Program-made: the position numbers and the translations under genes
In this document: piece by piece, positions 4,796 through 62,743 of the stretch
How positions within the stretch are numbered: position 1 is the stretch's first letter
How the letters are laid out: each line of letters begins with the position of its first letter
NCBI GenBank assembly: GCA_003233345.1
Contig: QILK01000044.1
Coordinates: 4,874-68,873, forward strand
Source of the DNA: Gammaproteobacteria bacterium
GTDB lineage: Bacteria > Pseudomonadota > Gammaproteobacteria > SZUA-21
Reading direction: 5' to 3'
Length of the DNA stretch: 64,000 nt
Notes under the pieces: generated by a model
What the model was told of the DNA's origin: nothing
Database searches by the model: none
Seen by the model: the letters and a program-made list of their open reading frames with translations, nothing else

Positions 4796-6155
4796 TTCTA
4801 GTTATTAATGCTTCGACAAAACGTTCCATTCGCATTGCTCGCGAACCTTTTATCAACACGCTGCCCTCACCGTGCCATTCGTTCTGAACACGCTTTAATA
4901 ATTCCGCCGGATCGCTAAAATGTTGTCCACCTTCACCAAAATTTTCACTGGCAAATCGACTGCTCTCACCCAATGTAAAAAGCCGGCTTACCCCTGCACG
5001 CCGGGCAAGTCGGCCGGCATCTTCATGCATTTCCACGGATTGCGTACCCAACTCACCCATATCCCCCAAAATAACCCAATGCTCACCGGCGGTATTAGCC
5101 AATACCGCCAGGGCGGCGCTTAGTGATGTCGGGTTAGCGTTATAGGTATCATCCAGTATTCTCATGCCATGTTCCCCGGTGTTCCATTGCAATCTGCCCT
5201 TGACTGACTGCATGGCATCGAGGCCCAATTTAATTTCCGCAGGTGTGAATCCAATGGCGGTAGCCAAGGCGGCGGCCACCAACGCGTTCATGACATTATG
5301 AGCACCCGGCAGACGCAAACAGAAATCGATATTTGACCCGCAAATATTCATACTTATCTGACTACCCTGCGTAACGACTTTCCATGTCGCGGTAAAGTCA
5401 GCCTCATGTTTTATCGAAAAAGTAAAAATTTTTTTATCCTCAGCCTTGCTTAACCAGATATCTTTATACTGGTCGTCAATATTGATAATGGCCGTGCCCG
5501 TATTTGTTAGTCCTTCAAAAATTTCACCTTTGGCGTGCGCAACACCTTCTATTGATCCAAATCCTTCCAGATGTGCATTACCCGCATGGGTGATTGCCGC
5601 TGCGTCCGGCAAGGCGATATCGGTCAAGTATTGAATTTCGCCGTGGTGATTGGCACCCAATTCTACTACTGCAAAGTCTTGATCCTGCAGGTTAAACAAG
5701 GTCAATGGCAGTCCAATATCATTGTTTAAATTTCCTTGGGTATATAGCGTTTCACCTTTTTGGCGCATGATGGACGCGGTCATTTCCTTAACGGTTGTTT
5801 TACCATTGCTACCAGTTACCGCCACCAGTTTGCCATTAAAATTTTTTCGACAATGCCGCGCTAATGCACCCAATGCCAGTCGGGTATCCTTGACAATAAT
5901 CATTGGCAACGTCGCATTGAGCTCGCGATCCAGCAACAATGCCGCAGCACTATCAGCGTCGCCTTGATCAACAAAGTCATGGGCATCAAAACGCTCGCCT
6001 TTTAACGCAACAAACAATGAATCGGCTGTTAGTTTTCGGGTGTCGGTAGAAACGTTTTTGATAAGATTTTCCGAACTGTTTATTAAACGTCCCTGCACTG
6101 CCCCTGCGATTTCACTCAGAGAAACAGCTTTCATGTATCCTCTCCCTGTAAACAC
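4770..6155 (-). CDS. murF: UDP-N-acetylmuramoyl-tripeptide--D-alanyl-D-alanine ligase MurF
   Basis: 461-aa Mur ligase, GSNGKTT motif, dcw position. Confidence 0.9.
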
Positions 6156-7663: not shown

Positions 7664-9438
7664 AAGCGCCTGTTGACACCCTGCTTGGCTATCTGTCGCG
7701 TCTTGACCGCTTTACCGGTTGACGCCTTATTTAAAGGGATAATTTTAGACTGCACCAAGGATAACTTATCCGGTGAAATATTCAAAATCCGTAACGAATC
7801 ACGCATGACTTCAGCAAAAACGGGGGCCGCGACTTTACCGCCATAATAAACATTATTTCCGGGCTCGTTAACAATCACGACAATAGCCAGTTTCGGTTTA
7901 CTGACCGGGGCTAAACCGGCAAATAAAGCAATGTGCCTTTTATTTGAATAGCCTTTCGATGTCAATACCCGGACTGTTCCGGTTTTGCCGGCAACCCGGT
8001 AACCAGAAACTGACGCCAGTTGGCCGGTTCCAGTAACAACCACTTTTTCGAGCATACGTTTGATCTGATACGCCGCCCGCGGTGTCATTACCCGTTTTCC
8101 GGGAACATTTTTCTCAACCTTGAGAATCGATACTGGCCTGGAAATCCCGCCATTGGCAATTATCGAATAGGCTTGCACGAGCTTGAGCGCTGTCATAGAA
8201 AGTCCATAACCATATGAATGCGTAGCAGTTTCAGCCTGATTCCAGTGCTTGTAATGATTTAGCGTTCCACTACTCTCGCCCGGAAATCCACTCTTTGTCG
8301 ATTGACCCAGGCCCAGTGCTTTATAATATTTCCAAACCGTACTGGACCCGATTTTCAGTGCCAGCTTACTGGTTCCGACATTACTGGACTTGCTTAGAAT
8401 ATTGGCTACATTCAAGATGCCATAATCTTTGCTGTCCTTTACCTTTAGCCCAGCCAGCTGTAACTCCCCTGGATGGGTGTTAATCAACGTACGCGATGTA
8501 ACCTTTCCGCTTTGCAATGCGGCCGCAATAAGAAATGGCTTGATCGTCGAACCCGGCTCAAAAATATCGGTAACCGCCCGGTTTCGGTATTTATCGCCAT
8601 GATACTGCTTGCGATCATTGGGATTATAGGAAGGCCTGTTAACCATCGCTAACACTTCGCCAGTCTGCACATCAAGAATAATAAGCGATCCTGATTTTGC
8701 TTGTGCTTTTTGAACAGCACCCTTCAATGCGCGATAAGCGATATACTGCAAGCGTTTATCAATACTTAACTTAACTAACTTCCCGTGCAGGGTTGGTCGA
8801 ATATTCTCAATCGTTTCAACAATATGTCCAACACCGTCTCTAGTCACTTTGCGCGATCCGGCTAACCCGGACAGATCACTGTTATAGGCCAGCTCAACAC
8901 CTTCCTGTCCAACATCATCAACATTGGTAAAACCGACAATATGCGCCGCGACTTCTCCCGCAGGATAATGCCTTTTATATTCTTTTAACAAGTGCACACC
9001 ACCCAAACCCAGTTTTTTGGTTTTCTTAATCAAACCCGGGCGTACCTGGCGTTTTACATACATAAATTGCGATTTACGCCGGGCATGGATTTTAATACGC
9101 TTGGTTAACGTTTTATGTTTGATGCCCAAGGTCTTTGCCAGTACTCGCCACTTCGGGTCCTTTAAATCAGCCTTTTGCGGGTTCAGCCATACCGACTGAA
9201 TAGGCGTACTGACAGCCAGTGGCTGACCTCGCCTATCGACAACCATGCCACGATAAGCGTGTGTTGGTATAATACGAAGATGCCTGGCAGCACTTTGCTT
9301 GCTGAGAAATTCATACTGATAGACTTGTAAAAATGTTGCACGCGCAAATAGTGCCACGAACAGTATCGATAACACAAACAAGACAACCTGACGACGTCGG
9401 CCTAATTCTTTTATAAGTCTGTTACTCTCACGGGTCAT
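7660..9438 (-). CDS. ftsI: peptidoglycan D,D-transpeptidase FtsI (PBP3)
   Basis: 592-aa class B PBP with N-terminal TM anchor, STIK (SxxK), SSN and KTG motifs. Confidence 0.9.
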   Translation of the reverse strand: MTRESNRLIKELGRRRQVVLFVLSILFVALFARATFLQVYQYEFLSKQSAARHLRIIPTHAYRGMVVDRRGQPLAVSTPIQSVWLNPQKADLKDPKWRVLAKTLGIKHKTLTKRIKIHARRKSQFMYVKRQVRPGLIKKTKKLGLGGVHLLKEYKRHYPAGEVAAHIVGFTNVDDVGQEGVELAYNSDLSGLAGSRKVTRDGVGHIVETIENIRPTLHGKLVKLSIDKRLQYIAYRALKGAVQKAQAKSGSLIILDVQTGEVLAMVNRPSYNPNDRKQYHGDKYRNRAVTDIFEPGSTIKPFLIAAALQSGKVTSRTLINTHPGELQLAGLKVKDSKDYGILNVANILSKSSNVGTSKLALKIGSSTVWKYYKALGLGQSTKSGFPGESSGTLNHYKHWNQAETATHSYGYGLSMTALKLVQAYSIIANGGISRPVSILKVEKNVPGKRVMTPRAAYQIKRMLEKVVVTGTGQLASVSGYRVAGKTGTVRVLTSKGYSNKRHIALFAGLAPVSKPKLAIVVIVNEPGNNVYYGGKVAAPVFAEVMRDSLRILNISPDKLSLVQSKIIPLNKASTGKAVKTRQIAKQGVNRRL

Positions 9439-11543: not shown

Positions 11544-11919
11544 GGGTGGGAGTTAATCGATAAGCCGGATTTTGTCGAGAACAGTCATTCATCTAGTCTA
11601 TATGTCGCCATATAGATCTAGCAACCTACCCGGGAACTATACGGGCCGCATTAACGTTCCCCTATTTGGTCTTGCTCCAGGTGGGGTTTACCCTGCCACT
11701 GATGTTACCACCAGTGCGGTGCGCTCTTACCGCACCATTTCACCCTTACCAGGTTATAAAATCTAACCTGGCGGTATATTTTCTGCGGCACTGGCCGTGG
11801 ACTCGCGTCTCCCAGGCGTTACCTGGCACCTTGCCCTATGGAGTCCGGACTTTCCTCTCCCCAAAGGTTTAACCAACCAGGGTCAAACATTTGAGCAGCG
11901 ACTGCTTTGATCAACTCCC
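11544..11919 (-). ncRNA. rnpB: RNase P RNA (bacterial type A), about 376 nt
   Basis: Minus-strand sequence contains the universally conserved GGAGAGGAAAGTCCGGACTCC (P4) and CTAGATGAATGACTGTTCTCGACAAAATCCGGCTTATCGATTAACTCCC (3' end, near-identical to E. coli M1 RNA 3' region); 5' GGGAGTTGATC pairs with 3' GATTAACTCCC to form P1; a TATGTTATAAT -10-like box lies about 7 nt upstream at about 11926-11936. Confidence 0.9.
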
Positions 11920-12960: not shown

Positions 12961-14880
12961 ATGCTGAATATCAAAAGCCTGCTATTTATTGTCTGCCTGA
13001 ACCTGGTGTTGGTACCCTGGGCGGGAGCGCAGTCGACTGGCGCACGTATGGGAAAATCACCCGATCATAAAAAACGCATGGGTAAATCCCCGGATAGTAA
13101 AAAAGGTGGCAGCAACGAGCCACGAGATATTGCGCTAAACGCACAAAGTTATCTTGACCAGGCGCAATCCAGTTCAGATCCGGAAAAACGCGCGGCATTG
13201 CAACTGCAAGCAGCTAAAGAATATATCAAAGGCAAATATTACGAACAGGCAGACAGTATTCTAGCTGGGTTGGATGCAAGCCGGCTTAGCGAATCATTGC
13301 AGTATCCCTACAAGCTACTGGCAGCTGAAATTGCCATGTCAAAACAGGATCCCAATAAAGCCCTGTCACTGGCAACCAAACCACCACGCTCAGCGCCACA
13401 ACCGCTTCAGCTTCAAGCGCATAAAACCCGCGCAGCCGCGTTCTTGCAATTAGGTAATCGACTGCAAAGTTTTCAGGAGTTGTTAATTGCAGCGCAACTG
13501 GCACCCGCTGATGAACAGGACAAGATCAACAAAGCAATCTGGCAAACCTTGCAACAAATCCCTAATGAAGGTTTGAAATCCCTGACCGGGCAATCAGACT
13601 CCAAGCAAATGGCTGGCTGGGTCGCACTTGTTTTAGTTTATAAAAAATCAAAATTATCACCGGATGCTTTGAAAGCAAATATAGAGAGCTGGCGTAATAA
13701 ATACAGTGATCATCCTGCGCAAAAGCAGATTATCGGCACACTCACCAAAGAACTCGAGAGCATACAATCACGTCCAGAAAAACTGGCACTGCTGGTGCCA
13801 CTTGACGGCCGTATCAGCCGCTCAAGTAAAGCCATTCGAGACGGATTTATTGCCGCCCACTTTGCCACTACCAACGATCGGAAAAAAATCGAACTTCGCA
13901 TTTACAATACGTCGGGAAAAGATGTAACAAAGGTCTACGACGAAGCGGTGCAGAATGGCGCTCAACTGGTTATCGGACCATTAAAACGTAAAAATGTAAA
14001 AAAGCTAAGTCAGCATGGGTCGGTAAGCACCCCTATCTTGGCACTAAATATACTCGCTCGCGACGAAGGTACCGCACCGGAAAACATGTACTTTTTTGGT
14101 CTCTCTTATCGCGACGAAGCAAAACAGGTGGCCGAAAAAGCAATTTTCGACAACCGCACAAATGCCATCGCTATTGTTCCGCATTCACGCTGGGGTGGCA
14201 AAGTACTAAAAGCATTTTTAAGTCGATATCAACAACTCGGTGGCAAATTGTTAAAATATACCACCTATAAAAAATCACAGACCGATTTTGGTCGCCAGCT
14301 AAAACACCTGTTAAATCTTGATGAATCAAAAACCCGACACAACAACCTGCGCTCAGTCATCGATACCAAAATGCATTTTGTCACCCGCAGACGATCTGAT
14401 GCCGAGTTTATATTCGTGGTGGCATCACCACGCACGGCACGTCTAATCGCCCCCCAGCTACGCTATTATCACGCTAAGGATCTACCTATTTATTCTACCT
14501 CACACGTCTACGGCGGCACCGAAAATACGCGACAGAATGTCGATATCAATGGACTCCTGTTTTGCGATATACCACTGGTACTCGGTGATCAGAAGCAAAC
14601 CGGGAGTATCAAAGCGGAAATCGTCAAACAGTGGCCGAATAAAATCAGCAATTCCATTCGTCTTTATGCCATTGGTATAGATGCTTACAATCTAATCCCG
14701 TATCTTAAATGGTTAAAAGACAGACCTTATGAACGCTTCGCCGGTTATACTGGTAAATTATCAATAGATAAAAATAATAATGTTCATCGCACATTGCAAT
14801 GGGCAAAAATAATTAAAGGTAAAGCAACCGTTATACAGGAACGTCTTGGCACCCCTTTAGAAAACCAGGTAAAAAATTAG
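12961..14880 (+). CDS. lpoA: penicillin-binding protein activator LpoA
   Basis: 639-aa secreted protein with N-terminal TPR-like region and C-terminal periplasmic-binding-protein (type I) fold; divergent from rsmI as in other gammaproteobacteria. Confidence 0.85.
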   Translation: MLNIKSLLFIVCLNLVLVPWAGAQSTGARMGKSPDHKKRMGKSPDSKKGGSNEPRDIALNAQSYLDQAQSSSDPEKRAALQLQAAKEYIKGKYYEQADSILAGLDASRLSESLQYPYKLLAAEIAMSKQDPNKALSLATKPPRSAPQPLQLQAHKTRAAAFLQLGNRLQSFQELLIAAQLAPADEQDKINKAIWQTLQQIPNEGLKSLTGQSDSKQMAGWVALVLVYKKSKLSPDALKANIESWRNKYSDHPAQKQIIGTLTKELESIQSRPEKLALLVPLDGRISRSSKAIRDGFIAAHFATTNDRKKIELRIYNTSGKDVTKVYDEAVQNGAQLVIGPLKRKNVKKLSQHGSVSTPILALNILARDEGTAPENMYFFGLSYRDEAKQVAEKAIFDNRTNAIAIVPHSRWGGKVLKAFLSRYQQLGGKLLKYTTYKKSQTDFGRQLKHLLNLDESKTRHNNLRSVIDTKMHFVTRRRSDAEFIFVVASPRTARLIAPQLRYYHAKDLPIYSTSHVYGGTENTRQNVDINGLLFCDIPLVLGDQKQTGSIKAEIVKQWPNKISNSIRLYAIGIDAYNLIPYLKWLKDRPYERFAGYTGKLSIDKNNNVHRTLQWAKIIKGKATVIQERLGTPLENQVKN

Positions 14881-15037: not shown

Positions 15038-15403
15038 TTGAACAAAAGATTATTAGGGTCCCAGGCTGAATATCTGGTATCAAAAACACTAGTCTCTAAT
15101 GGATATCGTGTCTGTGAACGAAACTATTACAGTCACGTAGGTGAAATTGACCTGATCGCCGAAAAAAATGAGTGGCTGGTTTTTATTGAGGTCAAATCGA
15201 GACACGACCATGACCTAATGGCTGCCGCCGAATCGGTTACCTGGAAAAAACAACGAAAAATCATACGCACAGCGCAGTATTATTTACTTGAGCACAAGCT
15301 CGGATCCGTTGCTTGCCGGTTTGATGTTATTTGTGTTACCAATGCCCGCGCCGCACACCCCGATATTCACTGGATCAAAAATGCCTTTGTGAATGGTTGC
15401 TAG
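15038..15403 (+). CDS. yraN: UPF0102 family endonuclease-like protein YraN
   Basis: 121-aa protein with GEIDLIA motif of the YraN family. Confidence 0.85.
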   Translation: MNKRLLGSQAEYLVSKTLVSNGYRVCERNYYSHVGEIDLIAEKNEWLVFIEVKSRHDHDLMAAAESVTWKKQRKIIRTAQYYLLEHKLGSVACRFDVICVTNARAAHPDIHWIKNAFVNGC

Positions 15404-16183: not shown

Positions 16184-16336
16184 GTAGCCCGGACTTCGCG
16201 CAGCGAACGCCGGGGAAAGAACATGATATTAACCCGCTTTCTCGTGGAATATTTATTGTTCGATAGCCGAGGGCTTCTATTGAATTTATGAGCACTATTC
16301 TTTTCCCCGGCGTTCGCTGCACGAAGTCCGGGCTAC
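16184..16336. mobile_element. MITE-like element copy A (about 153 bp) with about 30-bp terminal inverted repeats GTAGCCCGGACTTCGCGCAGCGAACGCCGGG
   Basis: Perfect or near-perfect inverted termini; same termini recur at 17788-17943 and 62590-62743. Confidence 0.8.
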
Positions 16337-16359: not shown

Positions 16360-17778
16360 TTGGAAGTTACTAGCGTGACCACATATACCTCATCATCTTT
16401 ACCCAAAATAGTTGAAAAAAAGCTCAAAAAAATCTGTGCCAATGGATTTTCTGTTGATGAGTCTGAACGCTATGCCTATGGTTACGATAATAGTCGTAAA
16501 CACAGTATGCCGAATGCGGTTATATTTGCAGAAAACCATCAACAGATACAAGATATTATTAAAATCTGCTACGAGTATAGTGTTCCTATAGTCGCCAGAG
16601 GCCGCGGTACTGGTACTACCGGTGGATCGATACCGCTGAAAAAAGCGATCGTCTTAAGCCTGGAAAGAATGAACCGGATTCTAAAAGTTGATCCTGACAA
16701 CCGGATGATGATTGTCGAACCCGGTGTGACCAATGCCGAAGTGCAGCGCGCGGCGGCTGATTGCGGGTTTTTCTGGCCGCCAGATCCGACCAGTGCCGAA
16801 TACTGCTCAATTGGTGGAAACCTTGGCTTTAATGCCGCCGGCCCGAAAACGGTAAAATACGGTAGCACTCGCGATAATACCCTCGGCCTAAAAGCAGTAA
16901 CCGGCACTGGAGATACATTAGTTACTGGGGTAAGAACTACAAAAGGTGTTGTCGGTTATGACTTGACAAGGCTTCTCATTGGCTCAGAAGGCACTTTAGC
17001 CATTATCACTGAAGCGACTTTAAAACTAACACCACTCCCCGATTGTGTGGTAACACTTCAATTTATCTTCGACAATATTCATAATGCAGCGACAGCTGTT
17101 TCAGCAATAATGAAGCAACCCGCTACACCGTGTGCGCTAGAGTTTATGGACAAGCATTCACTAGATCTGGTCAAAAATAACCCAGATCTTAATATTCCTG
17201 AGCAGGCCGGCGCGATGTTAATCGTTGAAATAGATGGTTTTAAGTCTGAATTAACTGAAAGCATCACTATGATTAAAACAGCAGCGGCTACCAGCCCTGG
17301 GCTAATTTCATCCCAGAGCGCCACAACCCCAGCAGAGATTAACTCGCTCTGGGCTGCGAGAAAGCAGCTTTCACCGGCACTACGGCGGATTGCCCCAAAA
17401 AAAATTAATGAGGATGTTGTCGTACCCGTTGCCAATATCCCTGCTTTAATTGAATACATCGAAAACCTGAGCCTGCATTATCAAATACCAATCGTTAATT
17501 TTGGACATGCTGGCAACGGCAATATCCATGTAAATTTACTCATCGATCCAAGCAACAAGATACAAATGGAAAACGAAACCAAATGCCTTAGCGACTTATT
17601 TGATAAGGTACTGGCACTGGAGGGAACCCTGTCGGGAGAGCACGGTGTTGGTATAGAAAAGCGCGATTATATCGACCGGGAAATCTTGCCCGTCGCATTA
17701 AACCTGATGCGTCAAATAAAATCGTCATTTGATCCAAAAGGCATACTCAATCCAGACAAGATTTTCCCACGAAAGTAG
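16360..17778 (+). CDS. FAD-linked oxidase, GlcD/D-lactate dehydrogenase family (start codon uncertain: TTG 16360, GTG 16375 or downstream)
   Basis: FAD-binding PCMH-type domain (RGxGTG...), C-terminal SGEHGVG motif typical of GlcD-like oxidases; no glcE/glcF partners adjacent. Confidence 0.8.
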   Translation: MEVTSVTTYTSSSLPKIVEKKLKKICANGFSVDESERYAYGYDNSRKHSMPNAVIFAENHQQIQDIIKICYEYSVPIVARGRGTGTTGGSIPLKKAIVLSLERMNRILKVDPDNRMMIVEPGVTNAEVQRAAADCGFFWPPDPTSAEYCSIGGNLGFNAAGPKTVKYGSTRDNTLGLKAVTGTGDTLVTGVRTTKGVVGYDLTRLLIGSEGTLAIITEATLKLTPLPDCVVTLQFIFDNIHNAATAVSAIMKQPATPCALEFMDKHSLDLVKNNPDLNIPEQAGAMLIVEIDGFKSELTESITMIKTAAATSPGLISSQSATTPAEINSLWAARKQLSPALRRIAPKKINEDVVVPVANIPALIEYIENLSLHYQIPIVNFGHAGNGNIHVNLLIDPSNKIQMENETKCLSDLFDKVLALEGTLSGEHGVGIEKRDYIDREILPVALNLMRQIKSSFDPKGILNPDKIFPRK

Positions 17779-17787
17779 CCCACGAAA

Positions 17788-17943
17788 GTAGCCCGGACTT
17801 CGCGTAGCGAACGCCGGGGGAAAGAAATAGGATTCGAAATTCAATTAAAACAGGCGACTGTGCTAGGTAGTCGGTAACTGACTAAAACAGGGAGAAACAG
17901 GATGTTCGCTCTCCCGGCGTTCGCTACGCGAAGTCCGGGCTAC
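17788..17943. mobile_element. MITE-like element copy B (about 156 bp); internal sequence is the reverse complement of copy C
   Basis: Same 30-bp TIRs; begins at the glcD-like stop codon; followed by a degenerate partial right end at 17963-17998. Confidence 0.8.
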
Positions 17944-17962: not shown

Positions 17963-17998
17963 GGATGTTCGTTCTTTTGGCGCAGTCCGGGTTGCAGC
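17963..17998. repeat. degenerate partial copy of MITE right terminus
   Basis: AGGATGTTCGTTCTTTTGGCGCAGTCCGGGTTGCAG resembles AGGATGTTCGCTCTCCCGGCGTTCGCTACGCGAAGTCCGGGCTACAG with an internal deletion. Confidence 0.5.
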
Positions 17999-22187: not shown

Positions 22188-23360
22188 ATGCAAATGGGTA
22201 AACAACTGAAATTTATTTTACAAAGTGTACTGCTGGGTCTGGCGATCGCATTTATTGTTATTTTGATTAAACCTAATTTATTACTAGGCAATCGCAATAC
22301 CCTTTCTGCTAATAACCAGAAAGATGCGGCGAGCAGCAAACCATCACCACCGGTAATGATGTATTCCTACGCGGCGGCAGTAAAAGCGGCAGCCCCTGCT
22401 GTCGTTAATATCTATTCGGCCAAGCAAAGCATGCCGCTGGTTTATCGCTATATTGACCCCCGGTTCAACACGATTTTGCCCCCAGAACAAGCTCAGTCAA
22501 AGCCCAAGTATAAGTTAAAAAGTCTCGGTTCCGGGGTAATTTTTGACAACAAGGGTTATATCCTCACCAACAACCATCTGGTCAAAGGCGCGGATAAAAT
22601 CCAGGTACTGCTCTATGACGGTCGTACCGCCACGGCTAAATTAATTGGTAATGACCCTGGCACTGACATCGCCGTGCTAAAAATAGACTTGCCAAATTTA
22701 CCTTCGATTAAATTTGGTTCCTCAGAAAAGCTGCTAGTCGGTGATGTTGTTCTAGCCATTGGCAATCCATACGGCGTAGGCCAAACGGTCACGCAAGGCA
22801 TTATCAGCGCCAAAGGTCGAAACCGGCTGGGTCTGACAACATACGAAAATTTTCTACAAACGGATGCCGCCATTAACCCTGGCAACTCTGGCGGTGCTTT
22901 AATTAATCCTAAAGGCGAGCTGATTGGCATCAGCACGGCTATCTATTCAAAAAGCGGCGGTTCACAAGGAATCGGATTTGCAATTCCAGTCAACGATGCA
23001 AAACAGGTGATGACCAGCATCCTCAAACATGGTTATGTTATGCGCGGCTGGCTAGGCGTTGGCGTCATGAATGTTAACCAGCGAGCAAGAGATTCATTCT
23101 CGCTAAAATCCGACTCCAATGGTGTTCTGATAACACAGATAATCGCCCATGGCCCTGGTCAAATTGCCGGGCTGATGCCCTATGACATTATCATGCAAAT
23201 AAATGATACCAAGATCTTCGATTCAAAACATTTCACTAACTTTGTCGCCCAACTTGAACCGGGTACGGAAGTGGATATTTATATTCTTCGCGAGGGCAAA
23301 GGCTACAAAACCAAGGCATCGGTCACCATGCAACCGGCATTCAACTTTATCCGCCGTTAG
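22188..23360 (+). CDS. membrane-anchored periplasmic serine endoprotease, DegS/AlgW family (trypsin domain + one PDZ)
   Basis: N-terminal TM anchor, GNSGGAL catalytic serine motif, single C-terminal PDZ domain; 390 aa. Confidence 0.85.
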   Translation: MQMGKQLKFILQSVLLGLAIAFIVILIKPNLLLGNRNTLSANNQKDAASSKPSPPVMMYSYAAAVKAAAPAVVNIYSAKQSMPLVYRYIDPRFNTILPPEQAQSKPKYKLKSLGSGVIFDNKGYILTNNHLVKGADKIQVLLYDGRTATAKLIGNDPGTDIAVLKIDLPNLPSIKFGSSEKLLVGDVVLAIGNPYGVGQTVTQGIISAKGRNRLGLTTYENFLQTDAAINPGNSGGALINPKGELIGISTAIYSKSGGSQGIGFAIPVNDAKQVMTSILKHGYVMRGWLGVGVMNVNQRARDSFSLKSDSNGVLITQIIAHGPGQIAGLMPYDIIMQINDTKIFDSKHFTNFVAQLEPGTEVDIYILREGKGYKTKASVTMQPAFNFIRR

Positions 23361-23518
23361 CCCCTATCGATAAAATATTCATTCGAGCCCGAATATTTCA
23401 TAAATTTGAACTGACTAATTTAACAATTTTAAGTGCTATTAGCTGTTGTATTTTAGGCTATTTGAATTTGGGGTTATTATCCTATTTAGCAGCGCCCTTT
23501 ACATCCGCGAGCCACAAG

Positions 23519-23837
23519 ATTTTTTTCAGCGCAGACAACTGGGGTTGTAATGACGCTGAAAAAAACTTCTGACTCGCGTGAATTTAGGGGAAACCTAAAT
23601 AGCTTCACTGCTGTCCCATCATTCCGGACTTGTTCCTGAATCCGGTGTTTTCAACAACTTCCTGAATGCCGGAGCAAGTCTGGGCAGTGAAATATCTTAT
23701 AAAAAAGAATAACAATATCAAATTCACTGGAAGCCCCTCTACGGTCAGTCAGAAGATTTTTTTTCGCGTCATTACAACCCCAGTTGTCTGCGCGAAAAAA
23801 AAACTTCTGACTGACCGTAGACCGTAGAAAGAGGGGC
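23519..23837. repeat. about 320-bp nested palindromic element (MITE-like or structured RNA) between convergent degS-like and hisC
   Basis: Left unit TTTTTTTCAGCG-CAGACAACTGGGGTTGTAATGA-CGCTGAAAAAAA-CTTCTGACT and its inverse copy at the right end, outer inverted repeats CCCCTCTACGGTCAGTCAGAAG / CTTCTGACTGACCGTAG(ACCGTAG)AAAGAGGGG, plus further internal palindromes. Confidence 0.7.
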
Positions 23838-23895
23838 GTTCTAAAAAAGGATAGTAGCCCAAGCCACAGCTTAATTTTTATATTTCATAAAAAGG

Positions 23896-24957
23896 TTAAA
23901 TAGCTTTTATTAACGAATTAATAAAAGCAGCGTTCTGTTCCGGGGTACCAACAGTTACCCGCAAGCAATCTTTAAGTGCCGGGCCGGCTTTAGAGAGGTT
24001 TTTAATTAATACACCCTCATCGAGAATCGATTTAAAAACCCGGTCGCCGCTATCGGCTGGACATCGAAAAAGAATAAAATTGGCCTGACTCGGATAGACT
24101 TTCAAACTGTCGATTGCTAACATTTTTTTAAATAAATTTTCCCGCTGAATGCAAATTTCATGGGTCTGCTTGTCTATTTCGTCTCGATTAAGCAAGGCAA
24201 ATTCGGCGCTGGCCTGCGTTAACGAATTAATATTGTAGGGCAGTCTAAGCTTGTCGAGTTCACTCACCAGCGCGGCCGGTCCACACAAATAGCCCAACCG
24301 CAGACCCGCTAATCCCATTTTCGAAACGGTACGCATTAACAATAGATTATCGTACTTTTGCAGATCATCTTTAAACGAATGATCGGAAAACGCCGCATAA
24401 GCTTCATCGATCACAACCAGGCCTTGCGTCGTTTGAATAATCTCAGCGATTAACGCCGGATCAAATAAATTACCGGTCGGATTATTCGGATAGGCAATAA
24501 ATATCACCTCCGGCGACCGCCGTTTTATTGCCTTTAATATCGCTGCTTTATCTAGTTCGAAATCAGGCGTTAACGGAATGCCCTGGTAATGCAGGCGACA
24601 ATATTTGCTTATCATCTGATACATGACAAAGCTGGGTTCAACTGACATAACCGTGGCGTTGTCCGCCGCAATTGCCATTAATATTATCTGAATAAGTTCA
24701 TCCGATCCGTTTCCCAAAATAACCTGGCAGGCTTCGGGCAAATCAAATGACCGCCTGATCATTGTGTTTAGCGCACTGGCACCTGGATCTGGATAACGGT
24801 TTAGCGATACCTTCGACAAGGTCTGTAACCACGCCTGTGTCATTGATTCCGGCCAGGTATAAGGATTTTCCATTGCATCCAGTTTTATAAGCCCACTGGC
24901 ATCCGGAACATAATACGCAGAAAGCGCCTGAATATCAGGGCGAATAGGATTTTTCAT
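23896..24957 (-). CDS. hisC: histidinol-phosphate aminotransferase
   Basis: 353-aa class II aminotransferase with PLP-lysine region, follows hisD. Confidence 0.9.
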   Translation of the reverse strand: MKNPIRPDIQALSAYYVPDASGLIKLDAMENPYTWPESMTQAWLQTLSKVSLNRYPDPGASALNTMIRRSFDLPEACQVILGNGSDELIQIILMAIAADNATVMSVEPSFVMYQMISKYCRLHYQGIPLTPDFELDKAAILKAIKRRSPEVIFIAYPNNPTGNLFDPALIAEIIQTTQGLVVIDEAYAAFSDHSFKDDLQKYDNLLLMRTVSKMGLAGLRLGYLCGPAALVSELDKLRLPYNINSLTQASAEFALLNRDEIDKQTHEICIQRENLFKKMLAIDSLKVYPSQANFILFRCPADSGDRVFKSILDEGVLIKNLSKAGPALKDCLRVTVGTPEQNAAFINSLIKAI

Positions 24958-28638: not shown

Positions 28639-28833
28639 TTGCTGTCGCTCTATGGTTTTACCTAATGGAAGCTCAAAACAGGTCATCCCCGACTTGTCAG
28701 AGCATGCAAAGCAAGTGAACTTGCGCAGTATAGCAGTATAACAGATAAACACTGAATTCGGTTACCAGAGAATAAACCGCAAATAATGCAGCCCACAGTA
28801 GCGTTTTCAAATTAGTTTAGGCGGTAGAAAGAA

Positions 28834-29136
28834 TTATACGATTGGAAGAACTTGATCCAAGTTACTAACACGAACCATCTTTAACATTTGCTTGGGTAAA
28901 TTAATGAAGTGAATGACCTGATTTCGGTTTCGGGCATCGCTTAACCACTCAACCAACAAGGCGATACCCGCGCTGTCGGAATGAGTAACGCCACCCAAAT
29001 CGATTTTTACGTCGTTTTGATTTTTAAAAAAATTGACAGCCCTTTGATGCACGTCAGACACATTGACATAGCTCAATTCACCACGTATGCGAATAAGACC
29101 ATCGGCTGCTTTTTGTATTTCAATTTGATCCGTCAT
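28834..29136 (-). CDS. mlaB: STAS-domain protein, MlaB-like
   Basis: 100-aa STAS domain immediately upstream of ibaG-murA, the canonical position of mlaB. Confidence 0.65.
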   Translation of the reverse strand: MTDQIEIQKAADGLIRIRGELSYVNVSDVHQRAVNFFKNQNDVKIDLGGVTHSDSAGIALLVEWLSDARNRNQVIHFINLPKQMLKMVRVSNLDQVLPIV

Positions 29137-29349
29137 CTCTATTCCCTATGTTAAAACAACAATGCAAAAACTACTTGTTAATGCCTACACTTTAAATAGC
29201 TACACTTATTTTAACGTTTAATCATCCATATGATAATAATATCTACCCTAAATTATAACAGAAATAACATTTTTGTGACGTCCATCACGAATTTATTTTT
29301 TCACTTGCTCGTTACACACAATTTAAAACTAATCCTAATAAGGTTAAAT

Positions 29350-39101: not shown

Positions 39102-39502
39102 ATACAGGGATATTACTCATTACCCACCAGCATATCGGTAAGGCTTTTGTCGATGTAGCCCAATCTATGTTAGCCAAAAAAACACAATCGATCCAAGTGA
39201 TCGAAATAGAATTGGAATGTGATCTGGATATAACGATTTCTCAGGCGGAAGCAGCCTTTAAAAAAGCCGATAATGGCAGCGGTGTATTAATTCTCACTGA
39301 TGCCTATGGATCTACGCCGAGTAATATTGCGATGAAATTGGTTTATGCTTTTCACGCCATTGCGGTCTCGGGATTAAACCTGCCAATGTTAATACGTGTT
39401 TTAAACTATTCAGAACTTCCCTTGGAAGCGCTGTCCAAGAAAGCACTTAGTGGCGGACTGGATGGCGTTACAACTTTCGACGCGACCGGCCCGACAAATT
39501 AA
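39098..39502 (+). CDS. PTS EIIA component, mannose/fructose (EIIA-Man) family
   Basis: About 134 aa starting MNTGILLITHQHIGKAF with phosphorylatable His near N-terminus; ATGA overlap with rapZ stop. Confidence 0.75.
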   Translation: MNTGILLITHQHIGKAFVDVAQSMLAKKTQSIQVIEIELECDLDITISQAEAAFKKADNGSGVLILTDAYGSTPSNIAMKLVYAFHAIAVSGLNLPMLIRVLNYSELPLEALSKKALSGGLDGVTTFDATGPTN

Positions 39503-39523
39503 TCCGGATACTAAAGATTAGCA

Positions 39524-39793
39524 ATGAAATCACTTCAGATCACCATTATTAACAAACTCGGCTTACACGCCAGAGCCGCATCGAAACTAGTGACATTAGC
39601 GGCCCACTATGACTGCGATATCAAAATATTATATAAAAACAAAAAAGCCAATGGTAAAAGTATTATGGGTGTTATGATGCTGGCAGCAGGCAAAGGCTCT
39701 ATTATTTCAATAATCACTGATGGCATAGATGAAAACCAAGCGATTGAAGCATTGGCAAAACTGATAAACAACCGATTTGATGAAGCAGTATAA
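39524..39793 (+). CDS. ptsH: phosphocarrier protein HPr/NPr
   Basis: 89 aa, GLHARAASK active-site His15 and a conserved Ser in the KSIMGVM region (HprK target). Confidence 0.85.
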   Translation: MKSLQITIINKLGLHARAASKLVTLAAHYDCDIKILYKNKKANGKSIMGVMMLAAGKGSIISIITDGIDENQAIEALAKLINNRFDEAV

Positions 39794-39796
39794 ATT

Positions 39797-62589: not shown

Positions 62590-62743
62590 GTAGCCCGGAC
62601 TTCGCGCAGCGAACGCCGGGAGAACGAACATCCTATTTTCCTGTCTTAATCAGCTACCGGCTACCTTACGCATATTCCTGTTTTAATTGAATTTTGAACC
62701 CTATTCCTTTTCCCCGGCGTTCGCTGCGCGAAGTCCGGGCTAC
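62590..62743. mobile_element. MITE-like element copy C (about 154 bp)
   Basis: Same 30-bp TIRs as copies A and B; internal sequence is reverse complement of copy B interior. Confidence 0.8.

Follow-up and report, generated by a model that had tools for sequence, protein, structure and literature searches.

A probable BIME-like mosaic of long hairpin repeats between convergent protease and hisC genes

The DNA analysed here is a single stretch of 64,000 nt (hereafter, the window) in which two genes converge on a short intergenic region: a DegS/HtrA-family serine protease gene at 22188-23360 on the plus strand (NCBIfam TIGR02037 / TIGR02038, and synteny with relatives), and hisC, encoding histidinol-phosphate transaminase, at 23896-24957 on the minus strand (NCBIfam TIGR01141, above cutoff), with hisD and then a hisG-sized ORF lying beyond it. 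The DNA belongs to an uncultured gammaproteobacterium for which the databases contain no close relative; the best named HisC matches, at 57-60% identity, come from Thiohalophilus, Woeseiaceae and Thioalkalispiraceae. Between the two genes is a palindromic block that an earlier note on this DNA had described as a 320-bp element containing two inverse copies of a ~45-bp unit, flanked by convergent degS-like and hisC genes. The block is real, all of the sequence features listed in that note are present, and the flanking genes are as named there, but both sizes need revision: homology with copies elsewhere places the feature at ~23396-23860, a length of ~465 bp, and continues weakly back to 23372 (BLAST, alignment A1), and alignment of the copies gives a repeated unit of ~130-140 nt.

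Within the block, two units in inverted orientation point their tagged ends inwards, towards a decayed GTAG-type REP that separates them. The left unit (23510-23574) and the right unit (23738-23821) are each a hairpin and are inverse copies of one another, with 56-nt arms that are 88% complementary. A 22-nt core, CAGACAACTGGGGTTGTAATGA, has exactly two matches in the window, one per strand, where none is expected from shuffled sequence. The right unit also has the outer inverted repeat that the earlier note had described, with 31-nt arms that are 97% complementary. Apart from this block, the window as a whole contains no long inverted repeats other than three doublets of a second element, GTAGCCCGGAC.

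The leftmost part of the block is the AT-rich 3′ tail of the left unit, which in its extended form occupies 23396-23472 on the minus strand and is near-identical in the copy at a metagenomic locus, L001 (BLAST, L001 1282-1724 against window 23847-23398; alignment A1). The left hairpin unit itself, wL, spans 23473-23585 on the minus strand, as judged from alignments A2/A3, its fold, the core match and a score of 107.9 bits with the covariance model described below. Read on that strand, it has an AAATTCA flank motif (23579-23585) and a hairpin (23492-23578) in which an apical stem (23527-23531 with 23554-23558) closes a 22-nt loop (23532-23553), and in which the T7 run is paired with the A7 run. 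Compared with the copy at L001, wL has lost 16 nt that include the tag and the basal left stem; it therefore lacks the outer stem and is a decayed copy. The spacer between the units (23586-23719, plus strand) comprises linker motifs and the decayed GTAG-type REP, TTCCGGACTTGTTCCTGAATCCGG, at ~23617-23647, identified by alignment with the REP doublets of the window and the L001 interior (alignment A5); at the equivalent position, L001 has an intact GTAGCCCGGAC REP. The earlier note had also reported palindromes in the interior, which indeed folds as a hairpin at ~23604-23691 (z = -3.6). The right hairpin unit, wR, is complete and spans 23720-23858 on the plus strand (covariance model score of 135.3 bits; inverted repeats I2/I5; fold with a dG of -67 kcal/mol, z = -10). 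It consists of the flank motif AAATTCACT (23720-23728), the tag GAAG (23730-23733), a hairpin (23734-23838) with the loop TCATTACAACCCCAGTTGTCTG (23769-23790), and the tail CTAAAAAAGGATAGTAGC from 23841; the 7-nt sequence GACCGTA is tandemly duplicated at 23813-23826.

Alignment of five complete units (A3) defines an oriented repeat of ~130-140 nt that we refer to as U. It reads from an AAATTCA(A/C)T motif through a G(A/T)AG tag and a ~105-nt imperfect hairpin into an AT-rich tail with the consensus CTAAAAAGGATAATAAC. The hairpin has a GC-rich base, the segments AGTCAGAAG/CTTGTGGCT, a T7 run paired with an A7 run, and a 4-5-bp GC stem beneath a conserved loop of 22 nt that has a mini-hairpin of its own. 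All four intact units have the tag, which is GTAG in L001L, the left unit at L001, and GAAG in wR, L001R and L005a.

The units are predicted to fold with dG values of -47 to -67 kcal/mol (z of -5 to -10). RNAalifold predicts 40 pairs, 7 of which change on both sides yet still pair. In a controlled count, 93.6% of cells were paired; the observed covariation was reached in 0 of 500 shuffles, and slid partners gave only 0-1 such pairs. The stem of U is kept by compensatory change; since U is a DNA palindrome, such change is equally compatible with folding as RNA and folding as DNA. In each of the five units, the 5′-tagged strand folds as stably as its complement or more so, with an advantage as RNA of 0.6, 0.6, 3.8, 7.5 and 13.5 kcal/mol, because G.U/G.T wobbles on the tagged strand are C.A mismatches on the complement; when folded as DNA, the tagged strand has an advantage of 4.6 kcal/mol for L001L and none for wR. 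GC skew is negative across positions 1-64000 and most genes are on the minus strand, suggesting that the plus strand is probably the lagging-strand template.

The covariance model (R1), which was built from alignment A3, recovers every known unit with scores of 108-141 bits, and detected no additional copies, either elsewhere in the window or at the other loci that we fetched. Weak matches to the model in one of these loci, L010, correspond to unrelated REP/MITE palindromes and were rejected as copies of U. Two gaps of ~600-700 bp in the window, at 28753-29349 and 39102-39796, contain no ORF of at least 110 aa, no long inverted repeat and no match to the model.

U is a dispersed repeat. The earlier note had proposed judging the element by whether it has other copies, and related units are found among unrelated genes on two metagenome contigs from marine sediment (L001 and L002) and, as a solo unit, on one MAG contig (L005, with the filled locus L013 being like it). 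L001 has the same two-armed block as the window, flanked by a hotdog-fold ORF on one side and the valS 3′ end on the other. The copy in L002 follows the stop codon of a DsrE-like gene, and its other side is the contig end. The L005 unit follows an HxlR gene on a contig that binning assigned to a Paraglaciecola arctica MAG (L005 being part of L014), and was found with a degenerate pattern consisting of a T-run, TTACAACCNCAG and an A-run; the same contig has a second, incomplete copy of U within a 309-bp segmental duplication. U is known from only four independent genomic contexts, at a density of one mosaic per 64 kb in the window, and one full and one incomplete unit per 14 kb in L014. It is positioned directly after stop codons at five loci, and lies between convergent genes in the window, L001 and L005/L013. 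The units in the window and in L001 form tag-to-tag inverted pairs with a REP-containing spacer of ~130 nt. An exact 20-mer of the core had no match in 185,579 representative genomes or in viral contigs, and the degenerate pattern had no match in viral contigs. Other candidates, namely four further loci with matches to the pattern in genomes (L006-L009), together with L004 from the same search and L003 from the metagenome scan, lack the stems or flanks and were discarded as chance matches, leaving L005 as the one real copy among the matches to the pattern in genomes.

Comparison of filled and empty sites indicates how U comes and goes. The hisC / protease / NIF3 / petABC gene order is kept in two relatives, with HisC proteins that are 57-59% identical, so the orthologous spacer to which the earlier note had pointed could be compared directly; synteny of the genes is retained, but the spacers of the relatives are 166 bp and 64 bp, rather than the 535 bp of the window, and do not contain the block. 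In L010 (Ga0063294_10000032), the orthologous spacer, at 8213-8378, contains a palindromic insert that is unrelated to the block and has terminal inverted repeats of 19 nt (GTTCCGAATTCCTGTCCAC), indicating that the same convergent spacer has been colonised independently. L010 also has other palindromic repeats, at 15070-15145 (a GTAGGAGCGGC-type REP pair) and at 13305-13445 (a palindrome of ~140 nt whose ends are TTTAGTGTCCGTCCATAAAC).

A rare view of the arrival of such a unit at a site comes from L012, a locus without the hairpin that aligns with L005 over 2.2 kb at ~95% identity. The two differ by a replacement, with 32 bp (a GTAG-type REP) in L012 in place of 345 bp in L005. The left break falls between AAATTCAAT and GGAAGCCCC, exactly at the tag, and AAATTCAAT is intact in the empty L012; the right break falls ~240 bp past the hairpin, at a CGA microhomology. 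There is no target duplication at these junctions. Since L012 lacks the hairpin from exactly the tag onwards, U has been gained or lost as one block, with the tag as its 5′ edge. The additional DNA of the L005 patch, in which there is a 3′ fragment of a DUF4440 gene, matches the other L005 copy at 93% identity. This is the only gain event that could be dissected, and, with ~240 bp of neighbouring DNA brought along, it could represent either transposase-driven read-through or a gene-conversion patch. Alignment of L005 2612-2725 with 5603-5712 shows the DUF4440 3′ fragment copied along with the hairpin unit, tail and REP into the HxlR/DUF4291 spacer; the donor-like locus retains only the 3′ half of the hairpin. 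Two more distant HxlR loci, L015 and L016, are not syntenic and were rejected as evidence for the ancestral state.

U is closely associated with the second palindromic family of the window. The earlier note had treated GTAGCCCGGAC as a MITE, from which the hisC-protease block was said to differ in family. Each 35-nt end of the GTAGCCCGGAC repeat consists of a GTAG tag followed by a short hairpin, and the element is a GTAG-tagged, REPIN-like REP doublet rather than a classical MITE. There are three such doublets, at 16184-16336, 17788-17943 and 62590-62743, with ends formed by GTAG and the hairpin CCCGG..TTCGC-GCA-GCGAA..CCGGG; the tags are outermost, and the spacers of 78-92 bp each contain AAATTCAAT ~20 nt from one REP. 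Directly 5′ of the 17.8-kb doublet is a partial extra copy of the head (GTAGCCCACGAAA, 17775-17787), and after it is a decayed REP-like stretch (GCGCAGTCCGGGTTGCAG, ~17975-17998), which suggests local turnover of the repeats.

The distinction drawn between the two families holds for their hairpins, which do differ, but the families are interleaved at every locus seen and have the AAATTCAAT flank in common. Three of the four AAATTCAAT sites in the window are inside the three REP doublets, and AAATTCAAT is directly 5′ of the tag in every intact U. A REP is found inside or beside U at the window, L001, L005 and L012 loci, and one copy of U starts with GGTAGCCCG, as REPs do. The tails of U and the REPs also resemble each other (AAATAGGAT ... 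AAATTCAA), a similarity that is marginal in a shuffle test (p ~0.03-0.1) and is only suggestive of homology. We infer that U is either a relative of the co-resident GTAG REPs, with a long stem, or their partner.

We propose that the block is probably a BIME-like mosaic of selfish palindromic repeats that occupies the space between convergent housekeeping genes, and that U is a REP/BIME-like non-autonomous repeat, probably mobilised by a RAYT. In sequence, U is a new family, but of a kind familiar among the selfish intergenic repeats of bacteria (REP/BIME/ERIC-like). GTAG REPs are found downstream of ORFs and between convergent ORFs, occur as inverted dimers, and are sometimes embedded in longer palindromes (PMC3733652). 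U is likewise extragenic, downstream of or between convergent ORFs, and forms inverted dimers with a spacer in the window and in L001; its hairpin, however, exceeds the 20-40 bp of these small palindromes. Some Y1 transposases occur together with long self-complementary repeats (PMC3733652), and RAYTs act on one folded DNA strand and require a 5′ tetranucleotide, changes to which reduce or abolish cleavage in the systems tested (PMC8266576). By analogy, a RAYT/TIRYT-type Y1 (HUH) transposase supplied in trans probably copies U in the form of folded single-stranded DNA, and U would land adjoining AAATTCAAT. Neither a Y1 transposase nor any other transposase was detected among the 26 ORFs scanned in the window or in the Pfam listings for genes called in L010-L016. 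Transcription reading through the ends of the protease gene and hisC would yield RNAs with very stable hairpins; any effect of these 3′-UTR structures on the host, such as pausing of the polymerase or blocking of exonucleases, would be a by-product.

An alternative possibility, which we consider unlikely, is that the ~465-bp block is a classical MITE: a deletion derivative of an IS with a DDE transposase, with the arms of the block serving as TIRs, that moves by cut-and-paste as one unit. The earlier note had listed a second MITE family among its candidates, and to the extent that this implied a mobile repeat, the dispersed copies and the empty site agree with it. The block has terminal inverted repeats (the 56-nt arms), has no coding capacity, and recurs with the same two-arm arrangement at L001. 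Moreover, it is bracketed in the window by a 12-nt exact direct repeat, ATATTTCATAAA, at 23393-23404 and 23880-23891. However, this repeat is not duplicated around the L001 copy, where TCATAAAT is part of the shared left sequence only, and the 12-nt match is therefore probably due to chance in AT-rich DNA rather than to target duplication. The comparison of filled and empty sites similarly reveals no duplication at the junctions, and the L005 unit shows that U can exist alone. Lastly, between the window and L001, the left arm and tail are ~97% identical, the right arm is only ~82% identical, and the interiors are unrelated except for the REP. These unequal identities and differing interiors indicate that the block was assembled from parts, not copied whole. 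The block shows neither the target-site duplication nor the movement as one unit that define a MITE, and the REP/BIME pattern fits it better.

It is similarly improbable that the block is maintained by selection on the host for an RNA function, either as 3′-UTR structures or as a small RNA that stabilises, processes or insulates the transcripts of the convergent genes. The location of U directly after stop codons, its very stable folds, its covariation and its conserved loop would all be expected of such an RNA, and REP, ERIC and Correia repeats are known to affect the fate of mRNAs (PMC3184786, PMC3733652). On the other hand, U is present or absent among relatives that are ~95% identical, the interior of the block is not conserved, and relatives manage with spacers of 64-166 bp that lack the block altogether. 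In the window, L001 and L002, transcription from the neighbouring genes would generate the less stable strand, with its C.A mismatches, which argues against selection for a role in mRNA, and the promoter signal is not above chance. The earlier note had also suggested a structured non-coding RNA, and had named a match to a known Rfam family as something that would refute its reading; in the block, Rfam searches returned only generic hairpin matches of the miRNA-precursor type, with scores of no more than 34 bits against cutoffs of 57-229, such that no family reached its gathering score. The sole family to do so anywhere in the window is the bacterial RNase P RNA class A, at 11545-11918 on the minus strand (332.7 bits).

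A more speculative idea, for which we see only a slim chance, retains a link to RAYTs and gives U a more active role, as the working end of a one-ended, rolling-circle-like mobilisation of single-stranded DNA that would proceed from the tag at AAATTCAAT into neighbouring DNA, copying fragments of genes as it goes. The 345-bp patch in L005, with its DUF4440 3′ fragment, would be an example. If this were true, REP-type repeats would be agents of sequence transduction in bacteria, and the 22-nt loop would be the specificity determinant for a dedicated Y1 enzyme.

The remaining explanations fare considerably worse. The earlier note had likened the stems to bidirectional intrinsic terminators, and a terminator module serving both genes would suit the position of the block between convergent genes and the homopolymer runs that adjoin its GC stems. 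Nevertheless, this is very unlikely. Either strand reads T-run, stem, loop, stem, A-run, so that a transcript would have A residues, not a U-tract, after the stem, which rules against bidirectional termination; moreover, the T-run and A-run pair with each other within a longer helix. A terminator scan called neither unit, and its only call at the block is a weak hairpin at 23867-23854 on the minus (hisC) strand that uses the tail T-run of a unit. By inspection, the sequence does not match IHF sites, integron attC cores or dif-like sites, and a retron is unlikely because there is no reverse transcriptase nearby. Least credible of all is a gene for a small hydrophobic protein, such as a type I toxin, running through the left arm: a 69-codon frame is open in the window (23363-23569) and L001 has a 59-codon ATG ORF with a hydrophobic stretch, but the window frame has no start before codon 34 and no ATG, the L002 frame is closed by the stop codon of the upstream gene with no start afterwards, an exhaustive search with the open frame found 0 homologs among 1.84 billion representative proteins, and a composite six-frame query found nothing.

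Interpreting the block as a REP/BIME-like mosaic removes the terminator-module and RNA-gene readings for this locus, and would place both repeat families of the window in one REP/BIME-type system. The covariance model and the defined unit can be used to mask or annotate such repeats in uncultured marine gammaproteobacteria. If the proposed link to RAYTs is correct, the long hairpin, GAAG tag and conserved loop of U would extend the set of substrates known for these domesticated transposases.

Several known systems resemble U in part. The ends of IS200/IS605 elements and their miniature derivatives also have hairpins that fold on one strand, and insertion next to a short flank without target duplication would fit the junction between AAATTCAAT and the tag; however, the left- and right-end hairpins of IS200/IS605 are on the same strand, whereas those of U are inverted copies, each of which can stand alone. 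ERIC/IRU (~127 bp) and Correia/NEMIS (~104-157 bp) elements are similar to U (~130 nt) in size, in being non-coding and imperfectly palindromic over their whole length, and in their location in the 3′ regions of genes, where they would be co-transcribed as a long RNA hairpin (PMC3184786). In contrast to U, these elements combine terminal inverted repeats with duplications of TA or other targets, none of which we found here; U has no sequence similarity to them and is polar, with a tag at one end and an AT-rich tail at the other. The TIR repeat families that flank TIRYT/RAYT genes, and the REP/stem-loop fusions of Pseudomonas (PMC3733652), are closer. These are long palindromes, some of them self-complementary, that occur singly, as dimers or in clusters in genomes that also have REPs, and some are degenerate GTAG units joined to other stem-loops, although several of the families have a GGGGWSAS motif that is absent from U.

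The most extensive parallels are with the GTAG REP/REPIN/BIME repeats (PMC3733652, PMC3116915, PMC8266576). U differs from these in that its hairpin, at ~105 nt with 40 predicted pairs rather than 20-40 nt, is about three times the size of any canonical REP, in that its tag is mostly GAAG (three of four intact units) rather than GTAG, and in its conserved 22-nt loop with a mini-hairpin and the T7/A7 segment in its stem. Like them, U carries what appears to be an unpaired tag of 4 nt, placed at the 5′ foot of its hairpin on a single defined strand, is located just downstream of ORFs and often between convergent ORFs, forms inverted pairs with a spacer, is interleaved with other repeat motifs, and has a stem that is kept by compensatory change. 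Indeed, U shares both its genomes and a physical linkage with a bona fide GTAG REP family.
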